DNA from: Escherichia phage ELT3
DNA: 64,000 nucleotides
Sequence record: PQ368571
Reading direction: 5' to 3' (one strand)
Part shown: piece after piece, positions 32,105-40,771 of the stretch
Layout: each line of letters opens with the position of its first letter
Numbering within the stretch: position 1 is the first letter of the stretch
Notes under the pieces: generated by a model
Databases searched by the model: none
The model's input: only the letters and a program-made list of their open reading frames with translations
What the model was told of the DNA's origin: nothing
Translations under genes and position numbers: made by a program

Positions 32105-32573
32105 AATTGATATCTATGCGGGTGGACCTTATCCATCGGGTGAATTGAGTAATTTCAATAAAAGACCATTCCGTCTATTTGGTTGCGATATTAACAGCAC
32201 AGAAGGATTTTTACAGGGGCTAAGATTTAAGAACCCTCAGAGACAAAGAGAAATCTTTTTGATGCACGGTGGCAAAGCAAAAAGAACCGGAAGAACTGAA
32301 AAGATTGAGAATAACATGTTATATTTTCAGGGTCGCCCGATTCATCGAATGAGTGAGCATTATTACAGACTGGCACATCTGGCATTTGTTACGATGGCAC
32401 GGAATAACCCAGAATTTTGTAAAGCATTACTCTCTACCGGAAATAAGAAATTACGTCATAGCATAGGTGGAACTGATCCGTTAAAGACTATATTGACTGA
32501 ATCGGAATTTTGTAGTATCCTCAATGATATTCGTGAACGTTTAACAAAACGAGGTGAAAATGTCAATTCTTAA
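32094..32573 (+). CDS. NADAR (YbiA-like, DUF1768) domain protein
   Basis: GELSNFNKRPF...GCDINSTEGFLQGLRF and ...NPEFCKALLSTGNKKL resemble the YbiA/NADAR core motifs as recalled. Confidence 0.55.
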   Translation: MTSEIDIYAGGPYPSGELSNFNKRPFRLFGCDINSTEGFLQGLRFKNPQRQREIFLMHGGKAKRTGRTEKIENNMLYFQGRPIHRMSEHYYRLAHLAFVTMARNNPEFCKALLSTGNKKLRHSIGGTDPLKTILTESEFCSILNDIRERLTKRGENVNS

Positions 32574-34056
32574 TATCATTAATCAGCTTGCAGCAACAGA
32601 CAAAACATCGCTGAAAGAAAAGATTCTGAAAGAATCCGCGAGCAATGAAACGCTGAAAGAATGCTTTTATCTGGCATATTGCAAACAGGTTACGTTTGGC
32701 GTAAAGAAATACGATAAACCGTCTCGCTATTCGTCTGTATTGTCTTTATCCGGTGCATTACAGGTCTTTAAAAATAAACTTGCCACGCGTCAAGTAACTG
32801 GTAATGCAGCATTACAGCTAGTTACCGATACTCTGACTTGCTTGTCAGAAGATGATGCTAAAGTTGCAATGATGGTCCTGAATCGTGATCTGGAATGTGG
32901 TTGTTCCGCTACTACTGCAAACAAGGTATGGAAGAAACTGATCCCCCAGCAGCCGTGCCACCTTGCATCGTCATGTTCTGATAAGACTATTGCTAATATC
33001 AAGTATCCGGCGTATGCACAACTTAAAAGCGATGGCGCTCGTGGTATGGCTGATATTGACGGGGAAACATTAGCAATCTATACCCGCTCAGGTAATACCT
33101 ATCAAGGGCTTGATGATTTGTTTGCGGTTTTAGAGCGTCTACGAGGACGTGGAATTGTTCTAGATGGCGAATTGGTATATATGCCTACCCTTTCGCAAAC
33201 ACCAGCGCAGAACTTCGTTGAAAGCGTTTATGATGGTACTCTGTCATGGATATTTGAAGAAGAGGAAATGCCATTAACGCCAGTAGCGGAAGCAGTGAAA
33301 GAATCCGTTGTTGCAGATCGTCAGACCGGAAATGGTATCCTCAACAAATCACTTAAAGGAACTATTCCAAAAGAAGAAGCCCAATGTATTGTTTACACTG
33401 TCTGGGATGTTATCGACCGTGATGTGTATTACGGAAACGAGAAAGCAACGAAGCAATATAAAGATCGATTCGAAGAACTAAAACAGATTGTTGAAGAACT
33501 TAACGATCCTCGTGTTCAGATCATCGAAAACACTGTAGTTAACAATATCGATGAAGCTCGCGAAGTATATCATCGTTATGTCAACATGGGCTTAGAAGGT
33601 ATTATCCTTAAAAATTTACATGGTGTATTTGAAGATCGCCGTAGTAAAGATCAGGTTAAATTTAAAGAAGTGATTGACTTCGACGCGGAAATTGTTGATG
33701 TATATCCGCATAGTAAAGACCCCAATAAGGTAGGCGGTTTTACTGTCCGTAGTGCGTGCGGACGAATGATGACTAACACCGGATCGGGATTAACCGACAC
33801 TACAACCGAAAAAGGTGATGATGGTACTGAACGTGTAATTCCGTTCGATCGTCGAAATGAACTCGACCGAGAAATGTTATGGGCTGACCGTCATAACCTG
33901 ATTGGAAAAGTTATTGAGATGACATGCAACGGGTATATCCGCAGCAAATCACGTAAAGAAGATGAACCGGAGTTCTCTTTATTTCTCCCGATCATCAAAC
34001 GTATTCGATACGACAAGACCACTGCAAATACAGTAAAAGAGGTATTCGATGTGTGA
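32554..34056 (+). CDS. 30: ATP-dependent DNA ligase
   Basis: 500 aa; similarity to T4 ligase as recalled (TGNAA, MMVLNRDLECG, adenylation motif AQLKSDGAR, DGELVY, LEGIILKN, FLPI..R.R.DKT.ANT). Confidence 0.9.
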   Translation: MKMSILNIINQLAATDKTSLKEKILKESASNETLKECFYLAYCKQVTFGVKKYDKPSRYSSVLSLSGALQVFKNKLATRQVTGNAALQLVTDTLTCLSEDDAKVAMMVLNRDLECGCSATTANKVWKKLIPQQPCHLASSCSDKTIANIKYPAYAQLKSDGARGMADIDGETLAIYTRSGNTYQGLDDLFAVLERLRGRGIVLDGELVYMPTLSQTPAQNFVESVYDGTLSWIFEEEEMPLTPVAEAVKESVVADRQTGNGILNKSLKGTIPKEEAQCIVYTVWDVIDRDVYYGNEKATKQYKDRFEELKQIVEELNDPRVQIIENTVVNNIDEAREVYHRYVNMGLEGIILKNLHGVFEDRRSKDQVKFKEVIDFDAEIVDVYPHSKDPNKVGGFTVRSACGRMMTNTGSGLTDTTTEKGDDGTERVIPFDRRNELDREMLWADRHNLIGKVIEMTCNGYIRSKSRKEDEPEFSLFLPIIKRIRYDKTTANTVKEVFDV

Positions 34057-34525
34057 TAATGAAGGGGCGAAAGCCCCTAAACCTAAAAAAATGTCAAAGA
34101 AAGAGCAACGCCAGATCCTGAAAATGAAATATGGTGGACGTTGTGCCTATTGTGGCGAGGAACTAGGGGATCGCTGGCACGCAGACCACATCAAACCAGT
34201 ATTGCGACGCTCAAAAGTAGTCTATGATGAAAATGGACGAATTGCCCGTAATGATGATGGATCGTGGAAGTATAAGGTTGTAGGAATGCATAAACCGGAA
34301 CATGATATACTTGATAACATGAATCCGTCGTGTGTGCAATGCAATCTTTATAAAAGCTGTATGGGCTTAGAATACTGGCGTAAGTGTATACGCGAGAACT
34401 TCCAGAAATACATTCAGCGCAATATGGGGTTGCGAGCGGCTAAACGCTTTGGCTTACTGTCAATCCACGACCAGCCAGTAGAATTTTATTTCGAAAAGTA
34501 TGAGCGCGAGCATCAAGAAAAATAA
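34049..34525 (+). CDS. HNH endonuclease
   Basis: CAYCG...HADHIKP...N...CVQCN HNH/zinc-finger signature; start may be the internal Met (MSKKEQ). Confidence 0.6.
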   Translation: MCDNEGAKAPKPKKMSKKEQRQILKMKYGGRCAYCGEELGDRWHADHIKPVLRRSKVVYDENGRIARNDDGSWKYKVVGMHKPEHDILDNMNPSCVQCNLYKSCMGLEYWRKCIRENFQKYIQRNMGLRAAKRFGLLSIHDQPVEFYFEKYEREHQEK

Positions 34526-34539
34526 TTCAAAAAAAGTTG

Positions 34540-34602
34540 TTGACAGGGGATCACCGATCCCCTATACTACACACATACCGAAACGAACTAGGAGAATCAA
34601 TT
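34540..34602 (+). promoter_or_regulatory. PeSL-like early promoter cassette (stem-loop ggggatcaccgatcccc)
   Basis: TTGACA at 34540, -10 TATACT at 34563, conserved leader ACACATACCGAAACGAA...AGGAGAATCAA. Confidence 0.65.
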
Positions 34603-34782
34603 ATGAACTTCAACGAAATCATCGCTAAAATCCGCTACAACGAAGAAACCATTGAACTGATGCAAAACAATATCACCAATGGTTATATGATTGCAGCGTC
34701 ACAAGAAATCATTGATTTGACGGTAGCAGAAAATGCTCAGTTGAAACATCAACTTTCAACGGCTGGCGTGATTGTTATGTAA
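34603..34782 (+). CDS. hypothetical small protein (59 aa)
   Basis: ATG after cassette leader. Confidence 0.45.
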   Translation: MNFNEIIAKIRYNEETIELMQNNITNGYMIAASQEIIDLTVAENAQLKHQLSTAGVIVM

Positions 34783-34799
34783 TAAAGAGAGGTGACTAA

Positions 34800-35102
34800 A
34801 TGGCCAAAGTTCAGGTAGGTGAGGTCTTCAAAATGGAAGACCATACCGTGGAAGAGATGAAAGGCGCAGTATTGAAAGTAATTAATTCAATGTGGCGTAG
34901 TGTGCTTTACATCAACTTTATCGACGGTGATGTGTGGTGGGCTAGCGATAGCGATAAATGGGATATCAAGTTCTACAAAGGCCATACTCACTGGTTAGGG
35001 TCCGAGGATGTTGTAGAAGTTCTGGCGGTTGATGTTATGCCAGGCGAGATCGAGAATCTTAGCGGAACAGCAAAAGAAGCATTGACACGCCATTTTGCGT
35101 AA
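34800..35102 (+). CDS. HxHW-family small protein (paralog family member 1 of 5)
   Basis: KGHTHWLGSEDVVEVLAVDV motif shared with ORFs at 36153, 36832, 37142, 37853. Confidence 0.55.
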   Translation: MAKVQVGEVFKMEDHTVEEMKGAVLKVINSMWRSVLYINFIDGDVWWASDSDKWDIKFYKGHTHWLGSEDVVEVLAVDVMPGEIENLSGTAKEALTRHFA

Positions 35103-35158
35103 TGTAGTATAACAATAATCGGGAGGGTAATACTCTCCCACAAATTGAGGATAATATT

Positions 35159-35350
35159 ATGTGTGGTCTTAAAATGGTTGCTGAATATAAGCGAACTGGT
35201 AATGTTATGATGTATCGACGCAATGCCAACGAAGAATGGAAACCTTCAAACCGCATTAAATCCATCCAGACGTTTATGAATAACATCAAAGAAAACCTTT
35301 TCGTTAAGCGTGCTGGTGTTGGACATTGGGAAGTTTACGAAGCTGTATAA
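35159..35350 (+). CDS. hypothetical small protein (63 aa)
   Basis: ORF with RBS GAGGA. Confidence 0.35.
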   Translation: MCGLKMVAEYKRTGNVMMYRRNANEEWKPSNRIKSIQTFMNNIKENLFVKRAGVGHWEVYEAV

Positions 35351-35366
35351 TTTTGAGGAAATTACT

Positions 35367-35660
35367 ATGGAACATACTAATTTGTTTGTAGCCGAACCTT
35401 TCGTTGAAGGCAATAAAAATCTTGCTAATACCGTTATTCTTTATGAAGATTGGATCTTTTACATCGACGAGCATTTAGATGTATTTTGTCGCACAGATAA
35501 AAGTGACCAATTTCCAATTGAAAAAAATCGAACATCAAATCATTGGTACGGCGGGAATGACGAAACCGACCTAGCTATTGTTCTCGAATCAGGCGTAGAA
35601 TCTGAACATGCCAATGAAGTGGCAGACAAATTTATGAAATACGCATATAAAGCATTATAA
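35367..35660 (+). CDS. hypothetical protein (97 aa)
   Basis: RBS GAGGAAA before internal ATG of track ORF 35310..35660. Confidence 0.4.
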   Translation: MEHTNLFVAEPFVEGNKNLANTVILYEDWIFYIDEHLDVFCRTDKSDQFPIEKNRTSNHWYGGNDETDLAIVLESGVESEHANEVADKFMKYAYKAL

Positions 35661-35665
35661 AGTTG

Positions 35666-35728
35666 TTGCCAGGGGATCGGTGATCCCCTATAATACACAC
35701 ATACCAACGAGATATAGGAGAATCAAAA
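35666..35728 (+). promoter_or_regulatory. PeSL-like early promoter cassette (TTGCCA, stem-loop ggggatcggtgatcccc, -10 TATAAT)
   Basis: -35 variant at 35666, -10 at 35689. Confidence 0.6.
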
Positions 35729-35896
35729 ATGTTCCAGACTAAAGCAGAATGCGAAGCATACATTGTAGCAAATCACGGTGAAGACTACCTGAAATTCGAT
35801 ATCGTAGTGGCACAGAAGATCACCGGAATGGTTGCAAAATATCTGGGTGTTAAAGAAGGTTACTATCCTAGCAACGCACCAGAAATTAACAAATAA
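35729..35896 (+). CDS. small protein (55 aa), near-identical paralog of 38985..39152
   Basis: MFQTKAECEAY...GYYPSNAPEINK versus MFETKAACEAY...GYYPSNAPEINK. Confidence 0.55.
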   Translation: MFQTKAECEAYIVANHGEDYLKFDIVVAQKITGMVAKYLGVKEGYYPSNAPEINK

Positions 35897-35898
35897 TA

Positions 35899-35960
35899 GT
35901 TGACAATGATTAAAGGGAGTAGTAAGATACTCCCATCAAGACAACAAACGGAGAATCAAA
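35899..35960 (+). promoter_or_regulatory. PeSL-like early promoter cassette (stem-loop gggagtagtaagatactccc)
   Basis: TTGACA at 35899, -10 TAAGAT at 35923. Confidence 0.65.
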
Positions 35961-36140
35961 ATGAAAGCTATCGAAGTTCAGAAGTACATGGAACTCATCA
36001 TTGAAGGTAAAGCACATACAGTATTGACTACCCACGTAGGATATGATAAAAATGTGCATATGCTGGTAGACAATATCGGTTGGATGAAGTTTAATCCTAA
36101 CGAGAATGTACAAGCTCAAGAAATGACCATCCCTTTCTAA
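35961..36140 (+). CDS. hypothetical small protein (59 aa)
   Basis: ATG after cassette leader. Confidence 0.45.
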   Translation: MKAIEVQKYMELIIEGKAHTVLTTHVGYDKNVHMLVDNIGWMKFNPNENVQAQEMTIPF

Positions 36141-36152
36141 GAGGAATATATT

Positions 36153-36431
36153 ATGATGCGAATTACTGCAACGCTGGATAAGACACACAAAGAAAGATTT
36201 TTAGGTATGATCTTAAAAACGCCGATTTTCGATAATTACCTTTATGTTGACTATGACGGTCACATTAGCTATAAATGTAAAAATGATATTCGTGATTCCT
36301 TTGGTGATAAATCACAAGCCGATATTCATGACCACTGGTGGAACCATGACGAACCTTTACGAGTTATCGCAGTTGATGTAAAAACAACAAAAGAAGCTGA
36401 TAAGGTAGTGAATGATTATGAGCAAATTTAA
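36153..36431 (+). CDS. HxHW-family small protein (member 2)
   Basis: DIHDHWWNHDEPLRVIAVDV motif. Confidence 0.55.
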   Translation: MMRITATLDKTHKERFLGMILKTPIFDNYLYVDYDGHISYKCKNDIRDSFGDKSQADIHDHWWNHDEPLRVIAVDVKTTKEADKVVNDYEQI

Positions 36432-36627
36432 AGAATACAAAGCATATCAACAGATTTTGCGAGTATACGCACCAGAGTTCGCCGAAAAGATGATGGAAGA
36501 TGCATCAAAATGCCCGTCCTTTTCTGGAAACAAAAACCATTATTCGACTGGTATTGTGTCATGGAAAGAAACCGCATATACTCAACAATGGATAGAGGTT
36601 TTCTCAAAAACTCTTGATTGGTGTTAA
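36418..36627 (+). CDS. small protein (SKFKEYKAY family), tandem paralog 1
   Basis: MSKFKEYKAY...MMEDA...GIVSWKET; paralog of 36630..36845. Confidence 0.5.
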   Translation: MSKFKEYKAYQQILRVYAPEFAEKMMEDASKCPSFSGNKNHYSTGIVSWKETAYTQQWIEVFSKTLDWC

Positions 36628-36629
36628 TT

Positions 36630-36845
36630 ATGAGCAAATTTAAAGATTATCGAGCATATAAAGCGATCTGCGATATATTCGATGAAAAGACCGCTCATGC
36701 AATGATGGAAGATGCAGAACAATATGAATCATTCGTCAATTCCAAAGATTGCACAGTAAACGGGATTGTGTGCTGGAAAGATACAAAGTATGAAGAAAAA
36801 TGGATTACTGTGTATTACGGAGAACTAGAATATGAAATTAACTAA
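36630..36845 (+). CDS. small protein (SKFKDYRAY family), tandem paralog 2
   Basis: MSKFKDYRAY...MMEDA...GIVCWKDT. Confidence 0.5.
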   Translation: MSKFKDYRAYKAICDIFDEKTAHAMMEDAEQYESFVNSKDCTVNGIVCWKDTKYEEKWITVYYGELEYEIN

Positions 36846-37152
36846 AAATATTTTCCCAGAATTGCGTAACTGTCTGTTACTGGTTACTGAATATAAACCT
36901 TATACGATCTATTTGTACGTCGATGAAAATCTGAAAATCCGTTACTATGATTATACGTCTCCGGTGATGAAATCATTTGCTCACTCGATCGCAAATAACT
37001 GTATGAATCACAATCATTGGGTATCAGAAACGGATGACGATGCGTCAGAAGTTGTAGTGGTTGCATGGAATCTATCACCATCGGAAGCAGATCAAGCACG
37101 CATTAAGCATTATGCGAAAAACAATTGGTTTGACCTTATAAGTGAGGACTAA
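36832..37152 (+). CDS. HxHW-family small protein (member 3)
   Basis: NHNHWVSETDDDASEVVVVAWNL motif. Confidence 0.5.
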   Translation: MKLTKNIFPELRNCLLLVTEYKPYTIYLYVDENLKIRYYDYTSPVMKSFAHSIANNCMNHNHWVSETDDDASEVVVVAWNLSPSEADQARIKHYAKNNWFDLISED

Positions 37153-37435
37153 TATTATGTTCAAAGTAGGTGATAAGTTTATTCTTAGTCGTGATATTAT
37201 CCCTAATCTGAAAGGTTGTATCATCAATCCTAGTAAAAATTCATGGTTTTATCTGTTTATCGACGACAAACTGAATGTACGCGCCGAATATAAAGAAGGT
37301 CTTCGCACTGGCCTCGGTTTCTTTAACGATCACGATCATAGCCATTGGCTAAACGGTGGATTCGAAGCAACGGTGCTCGCGGTTGATGTGACCTACACAA
37401 ACATCATAGAAAAATATCAAAAAATTATTTTATAA
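37142..37435 (+). CDS. HxHW-family small protein (member 4)
   Basis: HDHSHWLNGGFEATVLAVDV motif. Confidence 0.55.
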   Translation: MRTNIMFKVGDKFILSRDIIPNLKGCIINPSKNSWFYLFIDDKLNVRAEYKEGLRTGLGFFNDHDHSHWLNGGFEATVLAVDVTYTNIIEKYQKIIL

Positions 37436-37441
37436 AAAGTG

Positions 37442-37516
37442 TTGACATAAGATCGGGTGTATAGCATAATACACCCATCGAAACGAGATACACTTTCTAA
37501 CTAGGAGAATCAAATT
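37442..37516 (+). promoter_or_regulatory. PeSL-like early promoter cassette (stem-loop gggtgtatagcataatacaccc)
   Basis: TTGACA at 37442, -10 CATAAT at 37465. Confidence 0.65.
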
Positions 37517-37804
37517 ATGGCATACATCACCATCACTCTGAAAGTTAACAAATTTGCTCACGCTGCACACGAAACCGATAATGCAATCCGTAACAACAAG
37601 TTCGCACGTCTGGTACGCGATGCGGTAGCTAAAGAGTTCAACTTCAAATTTGCCGATGGTAAAGTTATCACTAAATGGACTCATGACGGCGAAACTAAAG
37701 TAGAACTTGCTGACAACTTCGCAAATCAGGAATATGCACACCGTCGCATTAATGAAATTATCAGCGATGAACTCTACTACGGTGTACAGGAAGGACTGTT
37801 TTAA
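37517..37804 (+). CDS. hypothetical protein (95 aa)
   Basis: ORF after cassette; terminator downstream. Confidence 0.5.
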   Translation: MAYITITLKVNKFAHAAHETDNAIRNNKFARLVRDAVAKEFNFKFADGKVITKWTHDGETKVELADNFANQEYAHRRINEIISDELYYGVQEGLF

Positions 37805-37809
37805 TATAC

Positions 37810-37829
37810 GGGGCGTTAAGCCCCTTTTC
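37810..37829 (+). terminator. Intrinsic terminator
   Basis: ggggcgttaagcccc followed by tttt; same hairpin sequence at 41830. Confidence 0.6.
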
Positions 37830-37852
37830 ATCCAACTATTGAGGATAATACT

Positions 37853-38161
37853 ATGAAAGATAATATCTTTGAATTTACCCGCGAAAATCTCCCAATGTTC
37901 CGAAAGTCTCTGCTTAAGCTAGAGAACAGCAATTACGATGTATATTTTTACATCACCGAAGATCTAGAGATCCTTTACGCTGATTACCCAGGTCCGATTC
38001 GTACCTTCGAAGAAGCATCGCAGTATAAAAATGTTCACGGTCATGAGCACTGGTTACGAGAAAACCCAGGTCGCAAGAAAGCACGCGTTAAAGTGCTGGC
38101 GATTGACATAACACCAGCATACGCCGACCGGATTGCACAGAATGATTATTTGTCTAAATGA
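37853..38161 (+). CDS. HxHW-family small protein (member 5)
   Basis: HGHEHWLRENPGRKKARVKVLAIDI motif. Confidence 0.55.
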   Translation: MKDNIFEFTRENLPMFRKSLLKLENSNYDVYFYITEDLEILYADYPGPIRTFEEASQYKNVHGHEHWLRENPGRKKARVKVLAIDITPAYADRIAQNDYLSK

Positions 38162-38168
38162 TTTTATT

Positions 38169-38194
38169 AGCCGACCTTAGTGTCGGCTTTTTTA
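38169..38194 (+). terminator. Intrinsic terminator
   Basis: agccgaccttagtgtcggct followed by tttttt. Confidence 0.65.
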
Positions 38195-38218
38195 TTGCAT
38201 AAAATTTTAAAAAAGGCA

Positions 38219-38287
38219 TTGACACCAGATCACGCCTATAGCATAATACACACATCGAAACGAGATACCACTTAGGAGAATCAAACA
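38219..38287 (+). promoter_or_regulatory. Early promoter cassette (TTGACA-N17-CATAAT) with conserved leader
   Basis: -35 at 38219, -10 at 38242. Confidence 0.6.
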
Positions 38288-38557
38288 ATGGCACTGACTA
38301 AAACCACTACCAACTTTGCAAAACGTCACGGCTTCGACCTTGAACTCAATAGCTTTGAAGATTACACTCTTCTGTGTGTATATGAAATCGAAAATGATTG
38401 CGAGTGGATGTTCAGCTATCGCGTAAACGAAGACGGATCTTTCACTTGGAACGGAAATATCTATCTTGCACAGGAAGTAAAAGAAGAACTTCCGGCGACT
38501 ATCAAAGATGAGAAACATTTACGTCAAGTTTTAAAATTTATTTCTGAAAATATCTAA
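38288..38557 (+). CDS. hypothetical protein (89 aa)
   Basis: ORF after cassette. Confidence 0.5.
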   Translation: MALTKTTTNFAKRHGFDLELNSFEDYTLLCVYEIENDCEWMFSYRVNEDGSFTWNGNIYLAQEVKEELPATIKDEKHLRQVLKFISENI

Positions 38558-38564
38558 AAAGTTG

Positions 38565-38626
38565 TTGACACCAAAGTAAGAACATAGCATAATACACCCA
38601 TACCGAAACGAACTGGAGAATCAAAA
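38565..38626 (+). promoter_or_regulatory. Early promoter cassette (TTGACA-N17-CATAAT) with conserved leader
   Basis: -35 at 38565, -10 at 38588. Confidence 0.6.
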
Positions 38627-38908
38627 ATGAAATTCATCAAAGCAACCGAAATCCTGAAAAACAAAGAAGCATACATCGGAAACATCGTTGGTATGAACAT
38701 TCGCGGTGCTGGTAGCCAGTGGACCAAACTGGTTGATGTTAAAGCTAAAGGCGATAAAATCGAGTTCACTGTAAAAATGCTTACTCATAACGCACATATG
38801 GGTATCAAGACAAAAACGATGGCAGCAGATAAAAGCATCAACTATCAAGATCTGGGCGATTGGCTGAACTGGTGCAAAATGCACAACATCGAAACTAATC
38901 ACGAATAA
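38627..38908 (+). CDS. hypothetical protein (93 aa)
   Basis: ORF after cassette. Confidence 0.5.
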   Translation: MKFIKATEILKNKEAYIGNIVGMNIRGAGSQWTKLVDVKAKGDKIEFTVKMLTHNAHMGIKTKTMAADKSINYQDLGDWLNWCKMHNIETNHE

Positions 38909-38922
38909 TTTTAAAAAAGTTG

Positions 38923-38984
38923 TTGACGGGGATCGGGAGATCCCCTATAATACACACATACCGAAACGAAATAGGAGAATCAAA
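38923..38984 (+). promoter_or_regulatory. PeSL-like early promoter cassette (stem-loop ggggatcgggagatcccc)
   Basis: TTGACG at 38923, -10 TATAAT at 38946. Confidence 0.65.
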
Positions 38985-39152
38985 ATGTTCGAGACTAAAG
39001 CAGCATGTGAAGCATATATCATTGAAACCTACGGTGAAGATTATCTGAAATTTGACATTGTAGTAGCACAGAAGATTGTAGGGATGGTTGCGAAATACCT
39101 CGGAGTTAAAGAAGGTTACTATCCTAGCAACGCACCAGAAATTAACAAATAA
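38985..39152 (+). CDS. small protein (55 aa), near-identical paralog of 35729..35896
   Basis: Duplicated gene including its promoter cassette. Confidence 0.55.
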   Translation: MFETKAACEAYIIETYGEDYLKFDIVVAQKIVGMVAKYLGVKEGYYPSNAPEINK

Positions 39153-39166
39153 TTTTATAAAAAGTG

Positions 39167-39235
39167 TTGACAGGGGAGGATAACTCCCCTACAATACAAC
39201 CATCAAGACGAGATACCACTTAGGAGAATCAAACA
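39167..39235 (+). promoter_or_regulatory. PeSL-like early promoter cassette (stem-loop ggggaggataactcccc)
   Basis: TTGACA at 39167, -10 TACAAT at 39190. Confidence 0.65.
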
Positions 39236-39487
39236 ATGGCTAACATCGAAACCGCAAAGAAAATCGCTAAAGACCTGAACGTTAAAGGCTTCCGTAAACT
39301 GAAATTACAGCGTGTACGCTACACCATCGGCAAACAGTGCTCTTTCATGAGCGAAGAAGTTGCTAACAGCCTGATTGATAACCTGATTGCGGCTGGCTGG
39401 GAAGTTGCGGATCTGAAAACTTGCCGCGAACTGGCTAACAAAGGTCTTTTAGATTCTGTTACTATCAAACCAATGGGGGCAGCGTGA
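39236..39487 (+). CDS. hypothetical protein (83 aa), first gene of a translationally coupled operon
   Basis: ORF after cassette; stop overlaps the next start. Confidence 0.5.
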   Translation: MANIETAKKIAKDLNVKGFRKLKLQRVRYTIGKQCSFMSEEVANSLIDNLIAAGWEVADLKTCRELANKGLLDSVTIKPMGAA

Positions 39488-39729
39488 AAAGAAAATTAAT
39501 TAAACGCAATAAGGAATTTCTTAATAACTGCATTAAGGCCGCTAATGGTTGGCCTTTGTGCCTCTTCCTTTATGATTGGTATTCTAAACAATCGGTTGAG
39601 GAAGCACGACACTATAAGAAGATCAGAAAAGAATCACACACAAAACAAGGTCGCATTAACGGACTTTACTTAATGTGGCACGGTAAAGAACCGACTAAAA
39701 TCTGTGCTGGGTTAAAGGGTCGTATATGA
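39484..39729 (+). CDS. hypothetical basic protein (81 aa)
   Basis: ATGA overlaps on both sides. Confidence 0.45.
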   Translation: MKRKLIKRNKEFLNNCIKAANGWPLCLFLYDWYSKQSVEEARHYKKIRKESHTKQGRINGLYLMWHGKEPTKICAGLKGRI

Positions 39730-40442
39730 AACAAAAATTAATATTCTGCAACTTTGACGGATCGGGGATAATGGGGCTAGAATGGGCTAAAGCAGGTCAT
39801 AAGGTAGTCTGCTTTAATGCGGATGACGCCGACCACGGTACATACAAAAAGTATAATACCAGATTTGAACATCCAAACATTACCTATGTAAACACATGGA
39901 TTGATTTGAACTGGCTGGAAAGAGCAATGGACCTTGAATGGGGGAAACCGGATATTATCTTTGCATTCCCACCGTGCACCAATTTAGCTGTTAGTGGCGC
40001 TGCGCACTTTGAACGAAAGAAACGAGAACAAGGACCATTGATTCAAGTTCATGATGTACGGGCAGCTAAAATAACCGCTTATTTGGGTGAATGGCTCGGA
40101 GTTCCCTACATGATAGAGAATCCTGTAAGCGTTATCTCTAGCATGTGGCGTAAGCCTGATTACATGTTCCATCCGTGGGAATATGGCGGTTATTTGCCGG
40201 AAGATGATAAGCATCCTACGTTTCCTGAGTATATTGCCGCCCGTGATATGTACCCGAAAAAGACTTGCTTATGGACCGGACAAGGCTTTATAATGCCAGA
40301 AAAGAAACCGTTGCAGATTAATAAAGGGTACAGTAAACAGCATTCTAAGCTAGGCGGGAAAGGAACGAAAACAAAGACTATAAGGTCACTTACCCCGCGA
40401 GGATTCGCAAAGGCAGTATTTGAAGCAAATAAGGATCTATAA
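39726..40442 (+). CDS. C5-cytosine methyltransferase-like catalytic-core protein (238 aa; no obvious target-recognition domain)
   Basis: Motif I-like FCNFDGSGIMG, motif IV-like FPPCTNLAVSGA (Pro-Cys), motif VI-like IENPVSV. Confidence 0.4.
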   Translation: MKQKLIFCNFDGSGIMGLEWAKAGHKVVCFNADDADHGTYKKYNTRFEHPNITYVNTWIDLNWLERAMDLEWGKPDIIFAFPPCTNLAVSGAAHFERKKREQGPLIQVHDVRAAKITAYLGEWLGVPYMIENPVSVISSMWRKPDYMFHPWEYGGYLPEDDKHPTFPEYIAARDMYPKKTCLWTGQGFIMPEKKPLQINKGYSKQHSKLGGKGTKTKTIRSLTPRGFAKAVFEANKDL

Positions 40443-40771
40443 TGAGATTGTTTAAGTATTCGCTAACGTCAAATTACGATAAACAAGGTCATTGCATCCG
40501 TTGCCCTGATTGTCATAGCCATAACATCGAAAGCAAGATCACCGATCATATTGATGGACTTTGGTCGCCAGCAAGTGAAATAGAATACTATTGCGCTGAT
40601 TGTGGAATTGTAGTAGCATATTGGGCATACGGATCATATGATCCATACTTCCAGATGGGAGAGCGTTCAATCCCTGCTCTTATCTGGAGAATTAAGAACA
40701 ACATCCGCCATTCATGGGATGAGTTCTTAAAAGATATTGATTTACGTGATGATCCATTCAGGAGACTATAA
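40442..40771 (+). CDS. zinc-ribbon protein (109 aa)
   Basis: CIRCPDC...CADCG paired CxxC motifs. Confidence 0.45.
   Translation: MRLFKYSLTSNYDKQGHCIRCPDCHSHNIESKITDHIDGLWSPASEIEYYCADCGIVVAYWAYGSYDPYFQMGERSIPALIWRIKNNIRHSWDEFLKDIDLRDDPFRRL

Follow-up and report, generated by a model that had tools for sequence, protein, structure and literature searches.

Six small genes in the DNA of Escherichia phage ELT3 (sequence record PQ368571) form a family of paralogs, lettered A to F here, whose products share a histidine-x-histidine-tryptophan (H-x-H-W) motif. The window in which they were studied is a stretch of 64,000 nucleotides, and all coordinates are positions in this window. All members of the family are located within one 3.4-kb stretch (34800-38161) of a hyperplastic region that is rich in promoter-early stem-loop (PeSL) elements. 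They are coding genes in an early-promoter context, and each of them is under purifying selection. The family is confined to the genus Krischvirus and its close uncultured relatives, and two of its products, E and F, are predicted to adopt a fold that has no known relatives.

A preliminary description of this DNA had reported five open reading frames (ORFs) with a common motif, starting at 34800, 36153, 36832, 37142 and 37853. The positions of these ORFs, their location on the plus strand and the peptides quoted from them proved exact, and the family relationship is real. The pattern H.HW occurs five times among the 764 six-frame ORFs of at least 35 amino acids in the window, where about 0.6-0.8 occurrences are expected from composition, and all five are in members A to E. 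Because the pairwise BLASTP scores were marginal (24-30 bits for most pairs, 48.5 bits for C and E), we built hidden Markov models (HMMs) in which one member was left out and the other four were used. The omitted member was always the top non-member among the 764 ORFs, with E-values of 5e-6 for A, 1e-9 for B, 4e-12 for C, 3e-8 for D and 1e-12 for E; the next unrelated ORF had an E-value of at least 0.017. The paralogy of the members is statistically solid, and the concern that the similarity of the motifs might not be significant is settled by these models.

The five ORFs are all genuine members, but the count of five was too low. The product of a sixth gene, F, matches the five-member profile with an E-value of about 6e-4. 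With a profile built from 29 diverse sequences of the family, F excluded, the E-value is 1.3e-6, and the next noise is at 0.38. The F allele of the window, which also occurs in RB49, ELT4 and JSE, deviates at three positions: the first His is Ser, Asp85 is Gly and Asp92 is Asn (residue numbers here and below are those of member E). The F slot of GEC-3S, G2494, JK32, FL38, Skers and G2248 is occupied by canonical THNHW...ASDV...NAD alleles (E = 1e-10 to 1e-13); the allele of G2248 is a variant with ESGV...HAD. No further copies were found with the family profile in the window and in the rest of the closest genome (ELT4, ~165 kb). The profile analysis unites five PHROGs of unknown function (9345, 15972, 16486, 17255 and 15965), the last of which is brought in by F.

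An ORF of 88 amino acids could be a seventh, motif-degenerate relative. It is located directly upstream of A in three genomes (JSE, contig L011, 1884-2150; G2494, L009, 937-1203; G2248, L013, 1237-1503) and is absent from the window. Its sequence contains IIYVTEDD..FHPGNGHL..VHLLAHSVTIDE. The model of this protein in BFVD (C4MZ33) was aligned by Foldseek with our model of member E at an E-value of 9.5e-3 and a template modelling (TM) score of 0.54-0.61. An hhalign alignment is in register with a P-value of 0.008 but a probability of only 5%; the family HMM gives no match.

Table. Members of the H-x-H-W family, neighboring genes and transcription signals in the window (aa, amino acids; nt, nucleotides; ORFs with the prefix w are further ORFs of the window).
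Feature	Position	Strand	Remarks
Member A	34800-35102	+	100 aa; RB49 ORF208; PHROG 16486; GHTHW...VLAVDV; family HMM E = 2e-25
Member F	35367-35660	+	97 aa; RB49 ORF206; PHROG 15965; degenerate TSNHW...VLESGV...HAN
Member B	36153-36431	+	92 aa; RB49 ORF203; PHROG 15972; IHDHWW...VIAVDV
Member C	36832-37152	+	106 aa; RB49 ORF200; PHROG 9345; NHNHW...VVVAWNL; start overlaps upstream gene by 14 nt
Member D	37157-37435	+	92 aa; RB49 ORF199; PHROG 17255; HDHSHW...VLAVDV; begins 4 nt past the C stop; most probable start
Member E	37853-38161	+	102 aa; RB49 ORF197; PHROG 9345; HGHEHW...VLAIDI
DNA ligase	32554-34056	+	left-hand neighbor of the gene cluster
HNH endonuclease	34049-34525	+	adjoins DNA ligase, left of the cluster
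DNA methyltransferase	39726-40442	+	right-hand neighbor of the gene cluster
PeSL	34533-34605	+	repeat search; TTGACA, GGGGATC..GATCCCC, TATACT; repeat family D2; promoter scan 11/12; heads w34603-A-w35159-F
PeSL	35651-35731	+	repeat search; between F and the 55-aa ORF at 35729; matches RB49 PeSL206/205
Sigma70-like promoter	35900-35928	+	TTGACA, 17 nt, TAAGAT; promoter scan 10/12; heads w35961-B-w36418-w36630-C-D
PeSL	37427-37491	+	repeat search; reference copy of repeat family D1; promoter scan 11/12; heads w37517, then E through a stem-loop (37810-37824)
Terminator-like hairpin with T-run	38169-38188	+	closes the transcription unit of E; annotated as terminator in GEC-3S and G2494
PeSL	38204-38268		repeat search
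PeSL	38550-38630		repeat search
PeSL	38916-38988		repeat search
PeSL	39152-39216		repeat search

All six genes have a GAGG or GGAG Shine-Dalgarno sequence. For D, the preliminary description had given an ORF beginning at 37142. This ORF is present, but its GTG is most probably not the start of the gene: GAGG precedes the ATG at 37157, the relatives are annotated from this ATG, and the PHROG match leaves out the first five residues of the GTG form. The products are soluble proteins of 92-106 amino acids with a grand average of hydropathy of -0.11 to -0.72 and an isoelectric point of 4.5-6.8. They match their PHROGs, all labeled as of unknown function, with E-values of 1e-49 to 1e-64, and PHROGs 15972, 17255 and 9345 are joined by weak cross-hits.

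Alignments of 23-29 family sequences reveal which residues have been kept among paralogs that are only 20-30% identical; the counts given here are from 23 sequences (21 for D92). H66 and W67 are present in 23/23, and H64 is present in 22/23, the sole exception being the Ser of the window/RB49-type F allele. Between the two His there is always a polar residue (N, D, T, S or E). A hydrophobic strand, V-x-[VIL]-[LIV]-A-x-[DNG]-[VIL], comes after the motif. D35 is found in 18 of the sequences, D or N at position 37 in 17, A83 in 19, D or N at position 85 in 19, and D92 in 15/21. Other conserved positions include Y31-L-Y-I-D35, V79, V81, L82, A83, V86, P88 and A91. The tyrosine-rich strand that had been noticed earlier in the N-terminal half corresponds to YLYID, in which Y33 is Tyr in 20/23 and Phe in 3/23; the N-termini themselves are not conserved among the members. 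The invariant H-x-H-W together with the conserved Asp/Asn residues suggests one common metal- or ligand-binding center, with H64, H66, D35, D/N85 and D92 as candidate metal ligands. All paralogs would keep one chemistry, because the polar tetrapeptide and several Asp/Asn residues persist at ~20-30% identity.

Structure prediction with AlphaFold2 (AF2) gave a confident model for member E, with a predicted local distance difference test score (pLDDT) of 85.9 and a predicted TM score (pTM) of 0.81. The model has strands at residues 5-7, 19-23, 29-34, 40-45 and 78-83, a short helix at 65-68 that contains the motif, and a C-terminal helix at 88-100. In the model of the window allele of F (pLDDT 81.7, pTM 0.78) the main secondary-structure elements are in the same order as in E. 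Both proteins are thus predicted to share a compact alpha/beta domain of five beta-strands, a motif helix and a long C-terminal helix, and the alignment implies that A to D have this fold as well. When the E model was compared with BFVD by Foldseek, the only significant neighbors were Krischvirus members of the family itself. The best E-value was 0.5 in the Foldseek comparison with PDB and 0.12 in a PDB sequence-profile search. Pfam matches to the six window proteins and 29 family members were below threshold and inconsistent (PROCT with E = 0.0024 in 3/29, T4_Y03C with E = 0.1 in 1/29), and NCBIfam gave nothing meaningful. The predicted fold is accordingly without a known relative among the libraries searched, in line with the preliminary description, in which no fold was recognized. 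Homology to a known conserved T4 family, which would have spoken against the claim, is not seen either; T4_Y03C is the sole Pfam match with a T4 name.

The genome had been described as T4-like, and the comparison with other phages bears this out. A megablast search with 34000-39500 of the window matched 58 phage records, with a query coverage of at least 80% in 40 of them. All 58 are from RB49/Phi1/GEC-3S-like Escherichia or Shigella phages with 93-98% identity; the closest relative of this segment is phage ELT4 (98.1%). The annotated relatives are assigned to the Straboviridae, genus Krischvirus (RB49/Phi1-like T4-type coliphages). We compared ten Krischvirus genomes and found that the six slots are filled, in identical order, in every one. 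The variation in copy number that one might have looked for among relatives does not occur in this set: there is no gain/loss polymorphism of the family genes among the ten genomes, and the variation consists of allele replacement. The ratios of nonsynonymous to synonymous substitution rates (dN/dS), estimated over the ten genomes by the Nei-Gojobori method (NG86), are 0.21 for A, 0.18 for F, 0.13 for B, 0.15 for C, 0.085 for D and 0.19 for E. The mean dN of the members is above that of most neighboring genes.

The alleles in the individual slots differ to varying degrees. A loop indel of six residues distinguishes the alleles of A, and E also has loop indels. Divergent allele types of F are 69-83% identical to the window allele, and GEC-3S and FL38 have a divergent allele of B (57% identity). 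JSE has a family member with 53% identity in the C slot, and its D slot is taken by a C-like paralog. Frameshifts interrupt E in two isolates, before the motif in JSE (L011, 5000-5388) and just after it in kvi (P0067); they point either to sequencing errors or to a gene that the phage can do without in the laboratory. Among orthologs the variation is spread along the proteins. No concentration of hypervariability around the motif was found; the motif is the least variable segment, with 2 of its 24 columns varying.

Counterparts of A, B, C and F are also present on diverged metagenomic contigs, with A, B and C in the same order as in the window. A contig of 2.1 kb (L002; Logan SRR8048117) contains five family domains in four genes. 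Its gene order is a w34603-like ORF (67% identity), an A-like member (48%), a w35961-like ORF (54%), a D-like two-domain fusion (halves ~30%), a B-like member (37%) and a C-like member (43%). The fusion (P0076; L002, 823-1434) is a protein of 203 amino acids that consists of two H-x-H-W domains. Another contig (L003) has a w36418/36630-like ORF (44%) followed by a C/E-like member (34%), and a third (L004) has an F-like member (30%). The identity to these diverged counterparts is 30-48% for the family versus 39-67% for the neighboring ORFs. Because ordered counterparts exist on contigs of a much more diverged uncultured relative, the duplications are older than the genus. They are ancient and constrained and not a recent burst. 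The rapid diversification that was suggested from the sequence of the window is therefore found in part: allele or cassette content does vary at F, B, C and D, but the duplications predate the genus, the dN/dS values are 0.09-0.21 and the copy number is constant. A protein of 71 amino acids on an 848-nucleotide contig of the European Nucleotide Archive (P0072) joins the first nine residues of a w35961-type protein to the C-terminal two-thirds of A; this chimera reflects either an error of assembly or a junction of recombinant or mini-circle-like type.

Larger searches delimit the distribution of the family. When 1.84 billion protein representatives were scanned with the family profile, 15 matched at E <= 1e-3. 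With the exception of P0080, a spurious repeat protein, these are all Krischvirus-type proteins or members on short uncultured contigs. A search of 5.8 billion clusters returned 73 clusters, none with a Pfam domain and several on contigs of ~163-176 kb; every isolate name among them is that of a Krischvirus-type coliphage. A broader profile of 23 sequences, used in a second large search, found nothing beyond the Krischvirus group. Searching 50,697 phage records by tblastn with diverged members gave matches in Krischvirus only. Neither this search nor the scan of 1.84 billion proteins detected a homolog in T4 or in other genera of the Straboviridae, and a search of IMG/VR with single diverged proteins gave no relatives.

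The family genes are part of a group of about 20 small genes between the ligase and HNH genes and the methyltransferase gene. All of these are on the plus strand, and they are annotated as 'hypothetical protein' in every deposited relative. A repeat of ~65-75 nucleotides occurs seven times between 34.5 and 39.2 kb. It is composed of TTGACA, a stem-loop of the GGGGATC..GATCCCC type or a variant of it, and TATAAT, and it continues into a conserved leader that contains AGGAGAATCAA and ATG. These repeats are PeSL cassettes as described for the hyperplastic regions of RB49 and phi1 (PMC2839356). The plus strand has seven sigma70-like sites with a promoter score of 11/12, and neither T4 late promoters (TATAAATA) nor MotA boxes occur in 34000-40500. 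Transcription units were deduced from the promoter scan, the repeats and the gene spacing; in the operon that begins at the promoter at 35900 the intergenic spacing is -14 to +12 nucleotides. The RB49 element PeSL206/205 has been tested in a lacZ fusion, where ~13,000 Miller units identified it as a strong promoter (PMC2839356). Together, these promoters agree with the assignment of the genes to an early region in the preliminary description. No family gene is directly 3' of a PeSL; each is preceded by at least one other gene in its operon, which is led by a PeSL or a promoter. This placement may explain why the number of family genes is stable while adjoining cassettes with a single ORF come and go.

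Several other features of the region were recorded. A cassette of a PeSL and the 55-aa ORF is duplicated (35659-35897 and 38916-39153), with 85% identity over 172 nucleotides and 87% identity of the proteins (PHROG 8009, unknown function). The two copies are 3.3 kb apart, on either side of most of the H-x-H-W cluster, and direct repeats like these are of the kind that PeSL-mediated excision would use. A second pair of tandem paralogs with 43% identity is located between B and C (36418-36627, 69 amino acids, and 36630-36845, 71 amino acids; PHROG 8471, unknown function). On contig L003 the 44%-identical homolog of this pair is directly 5' of the C-like member, hence the adjacency has been kept. 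At the other end, the window (34526-34602) is without ORF211 and ORF210, which in RB49 separate the HNH gene from the first PeSL operon (L010, 890-1651); ORF211 of RB49 has been reported as a homolog of an integron ORF. The first ~530 nucleotides of the megablast query, which belong to the HNH gene, have no match in many relatives. Because of these two differences the left edge of the cluster is polymorphic.

What the six proteins do can be approached from these data with some caution. We tentatively favor the view that the paralogs are non-essential early effectors that act on host targets, and we hold it with somewhat less than even confidence. The six ORFs would then be transcribed right after infection by the host RNA polymerase from sigma70-type PeSL promoters. 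Their products would be small, soluble, mildly acidic to neutral cytoplasmic proteins, restricted to one lineage. They would have a common polar center, made up of the H-x-H-W between strands 4 and 5, the Asp/Asn after YLYID, the Asp/Asn after VLAVDV and the Asp that opens the last helix. This center would perform the same chemistry in each member, be it the binding of a divalent metal or of a phosphate- or nucleotide-type ligand, or catalysis. The divergent N-terminal halves and loops, in turn, would aim the paralogs at separate targets in the host, for host takeover or for counter-defence. Both the binding of a metal or ligand and the choice of host rather than phage targets are what we infer. 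An accessory character of the genes is supported by their non-core location, the narrow distribution, the frameshifts of E in two isolates, the allele or cassette swaps at F, B, C and D, and a divergence from the metagenomic counterparts that exceeds that of the neighboring ORFs; furthermore, hyperplastic regions of this kind are described as rich in non-essential genes (PMC2839356).

Several observations weigh against such effectors. No homology ties any member to a host target, a defence system or a metal. The copy number is fixed at six in all ten genomes, and all dN/dS values are well below 1, unlike those of a classic arms-race family. Only two residues of a commonly metal-binding kind are invariant, and several members have N, G or K instead of D85 and D92, which means that one monomer need not contain a conserved mononuclear site. 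Moreover, the putative polar center is read from alignment columns. A bolder version, in which RB49-like phages, whose DNA contains unmodified cytosine, have expanded a new fold with a new His-x-His-Trp metal or nucleotide center to six effectors, each neutralizing a different host defence or signalling molecule, seems to us unlikely; if true, it would amount to a new class of anti-defence or host-takeover proteins.

The constancy of the six slots could also mean that the paralogs are subunits of one hetero-oligomer with H-x-H-W at the interfaces, for example in inter-subunit metal sites. The same order of occupied slots in 10/10 genomes would fit this, the two-domain fusion P0076 is a 'Rosetta-stone' hint that members interact, and a full metal site in a monomer would need more than the two invariant His that each chain offers. 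However, the slots tolerate a paralog swap (D in JSE), divergent alleles (57% for B, 69% for F), the loss of the first His in the window allele of F and the frameshifts of E. Such tolerance would not be expected of an obligate stoichiometric complex, and we consider a hetero-oligomer rather improbable. We are equally doubtful that the proteins are small enzymes, e.g. of a two-histidine phosphoesterase or nuclease type, which act on RNA, DNA or signalling nucleotides and in which the paralogs are tuned by substrate. In favor of enzymes, an aromatic residue adjoins the invariant His pair, and four acidic or amide positions are conserved at 20-30% identity; HGHEHWL in E and HDHDHSHWL in D also resemble a histidine triad, albeit superficially. 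A role inside the phage, as regulators of transcription or translation or as nucleic-acid binders with a KOW/Tudor/SH3-like N-terminal half, appears less probable still. It is suggested by the KOW-like N-termini of A and D (KVGDKF..L..LKG), by the name 'KOW2-KOW3 domains of Spt5' that a D-type protein (P0069) has in one metagenome source, and by weak matches to Spindlin Tudor-like repeats in the PDB profile search (E = 0.14-0.45, profile positions 2-42). A KOW/Tudor/SH3-like barrel as such was rejected, as there was no significant profile or structural match.

It is very improbable that the family members are packaged in the capsid and injected, like the products of the polymorphic internal protein (IP) loci of T4. 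The N-terminus of F (MEHTNLFVAE) is faintly like MKTYQEFIAE, the capsid-targeting sequence of T4, and the T4 IP loci are likewise hyperplastic and flanked by PeSL-like elements (discussed in PMC2839356). But there is no late promoter in the region, the N-termini differ among the members, and the N-terminal residues form strand 1 in the AF2 models instead of a detachable leader; an identity with T4 internal proteins was rejected. Finally, the idea that the motif is a chance resemblance, or that the ORFs are not genes, can practically be dismissed. Several pairwise BLASTP scores are indeed as low as 24-29 bits. Against this stand the leave-one-out E-values of 5e-6 to 1e-12, the retention of the motif across 23-29 sequences, the low dN/dS values, the synteny, the agreement in element order between the confident models of E and F, and the alignment of the E model with BFVD models of other members.

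T4-type phages have hundreds of early ORFans, and very few of these have a known function. Here six ORFans that were distributed over five PHROGs of unknown function become one family; its motif is invariant, its structure is predicted with confidence and the context of its expression is defined. The evidence establishes a family and not a function. This family provides a compact experimental target for a whole block of accessory genes in Krischviruses, which are widely isolated for phage therapy.

In comparison with known proteins, the members are similar to histidine triad (HIT) hydrolases and transferases in that they are small alpha+beta proteins with a His-x-His in the C-terminal half, and E and D even have at least three alternating His. 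The HIT superfamily was rejected, since H-phi-H-phi-H-phi-phi is absent, only two His are invariant with N, D, T, S or E between them, and neither profile nor structure comparison detected a HIT fold. The 'HNHW' is a contiguous tetrapeptide without a beta-beta-alpha-metal motif and thus does not indicate an HNH nuclease. Known anti-defence proteins (Acr, Tad, Acb etc.) were also rejected, as there was no similarity in sequence or fold to a characterized inhibitor; small inhibitor and immunity proteins of phages or bacteria (Tis1, 6ox6_B; AcrIIA7, 8kbi_A; Tad2, 9eib_A) are among the closest known systems. The functional class that we judge likeliest is that of T4 effectors such as gp55.2, an early ORFan that inhibits topoisomerase I of E. 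coli (PMC4396842). The members resemble these effectors as small phage ORFans that would modulate a host protein; unlike them, they are not encoded by single genes but form a family of six with an invariant polar motif, and there is no relation in sequence or structure.

The closest known setting is that of the PeSL and ORFan cassettes of RB49 and phi1 (Arbiol et al. 2010, PMC2839356), in which the RB49 cluster of ORFs 189.1-212 is the same locus; ORFan192 of this cluster has been placed in hyperplastic region 3 (HPR3). The RB49 ORFs 197, 199, 200, 203, 206 and 208 are the orthologs of our genes and lie among the same repeats of a sigma70-like promoter and a GGGG..CCCC stem-loop, outside the core genome. 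That paper does not describe these ORFs as a paralogous family (the word 'paralog' occurs 0 times), and our literature search found no paper in which these ORFs, paralogs or anti-defence are linked to Krischvirus or RB49. The PHROGs split the family into five groups, which the profile analysis merges. Like other PeSL-associated ORFans, the members have a hyperplastic location and an upstream PeSL, but they lack the polymorphism in presence or absence. The cluster is an uncharacterized example of the lineage-specific ORFan families that are known from the hyperplastic regions of T4-type phages.

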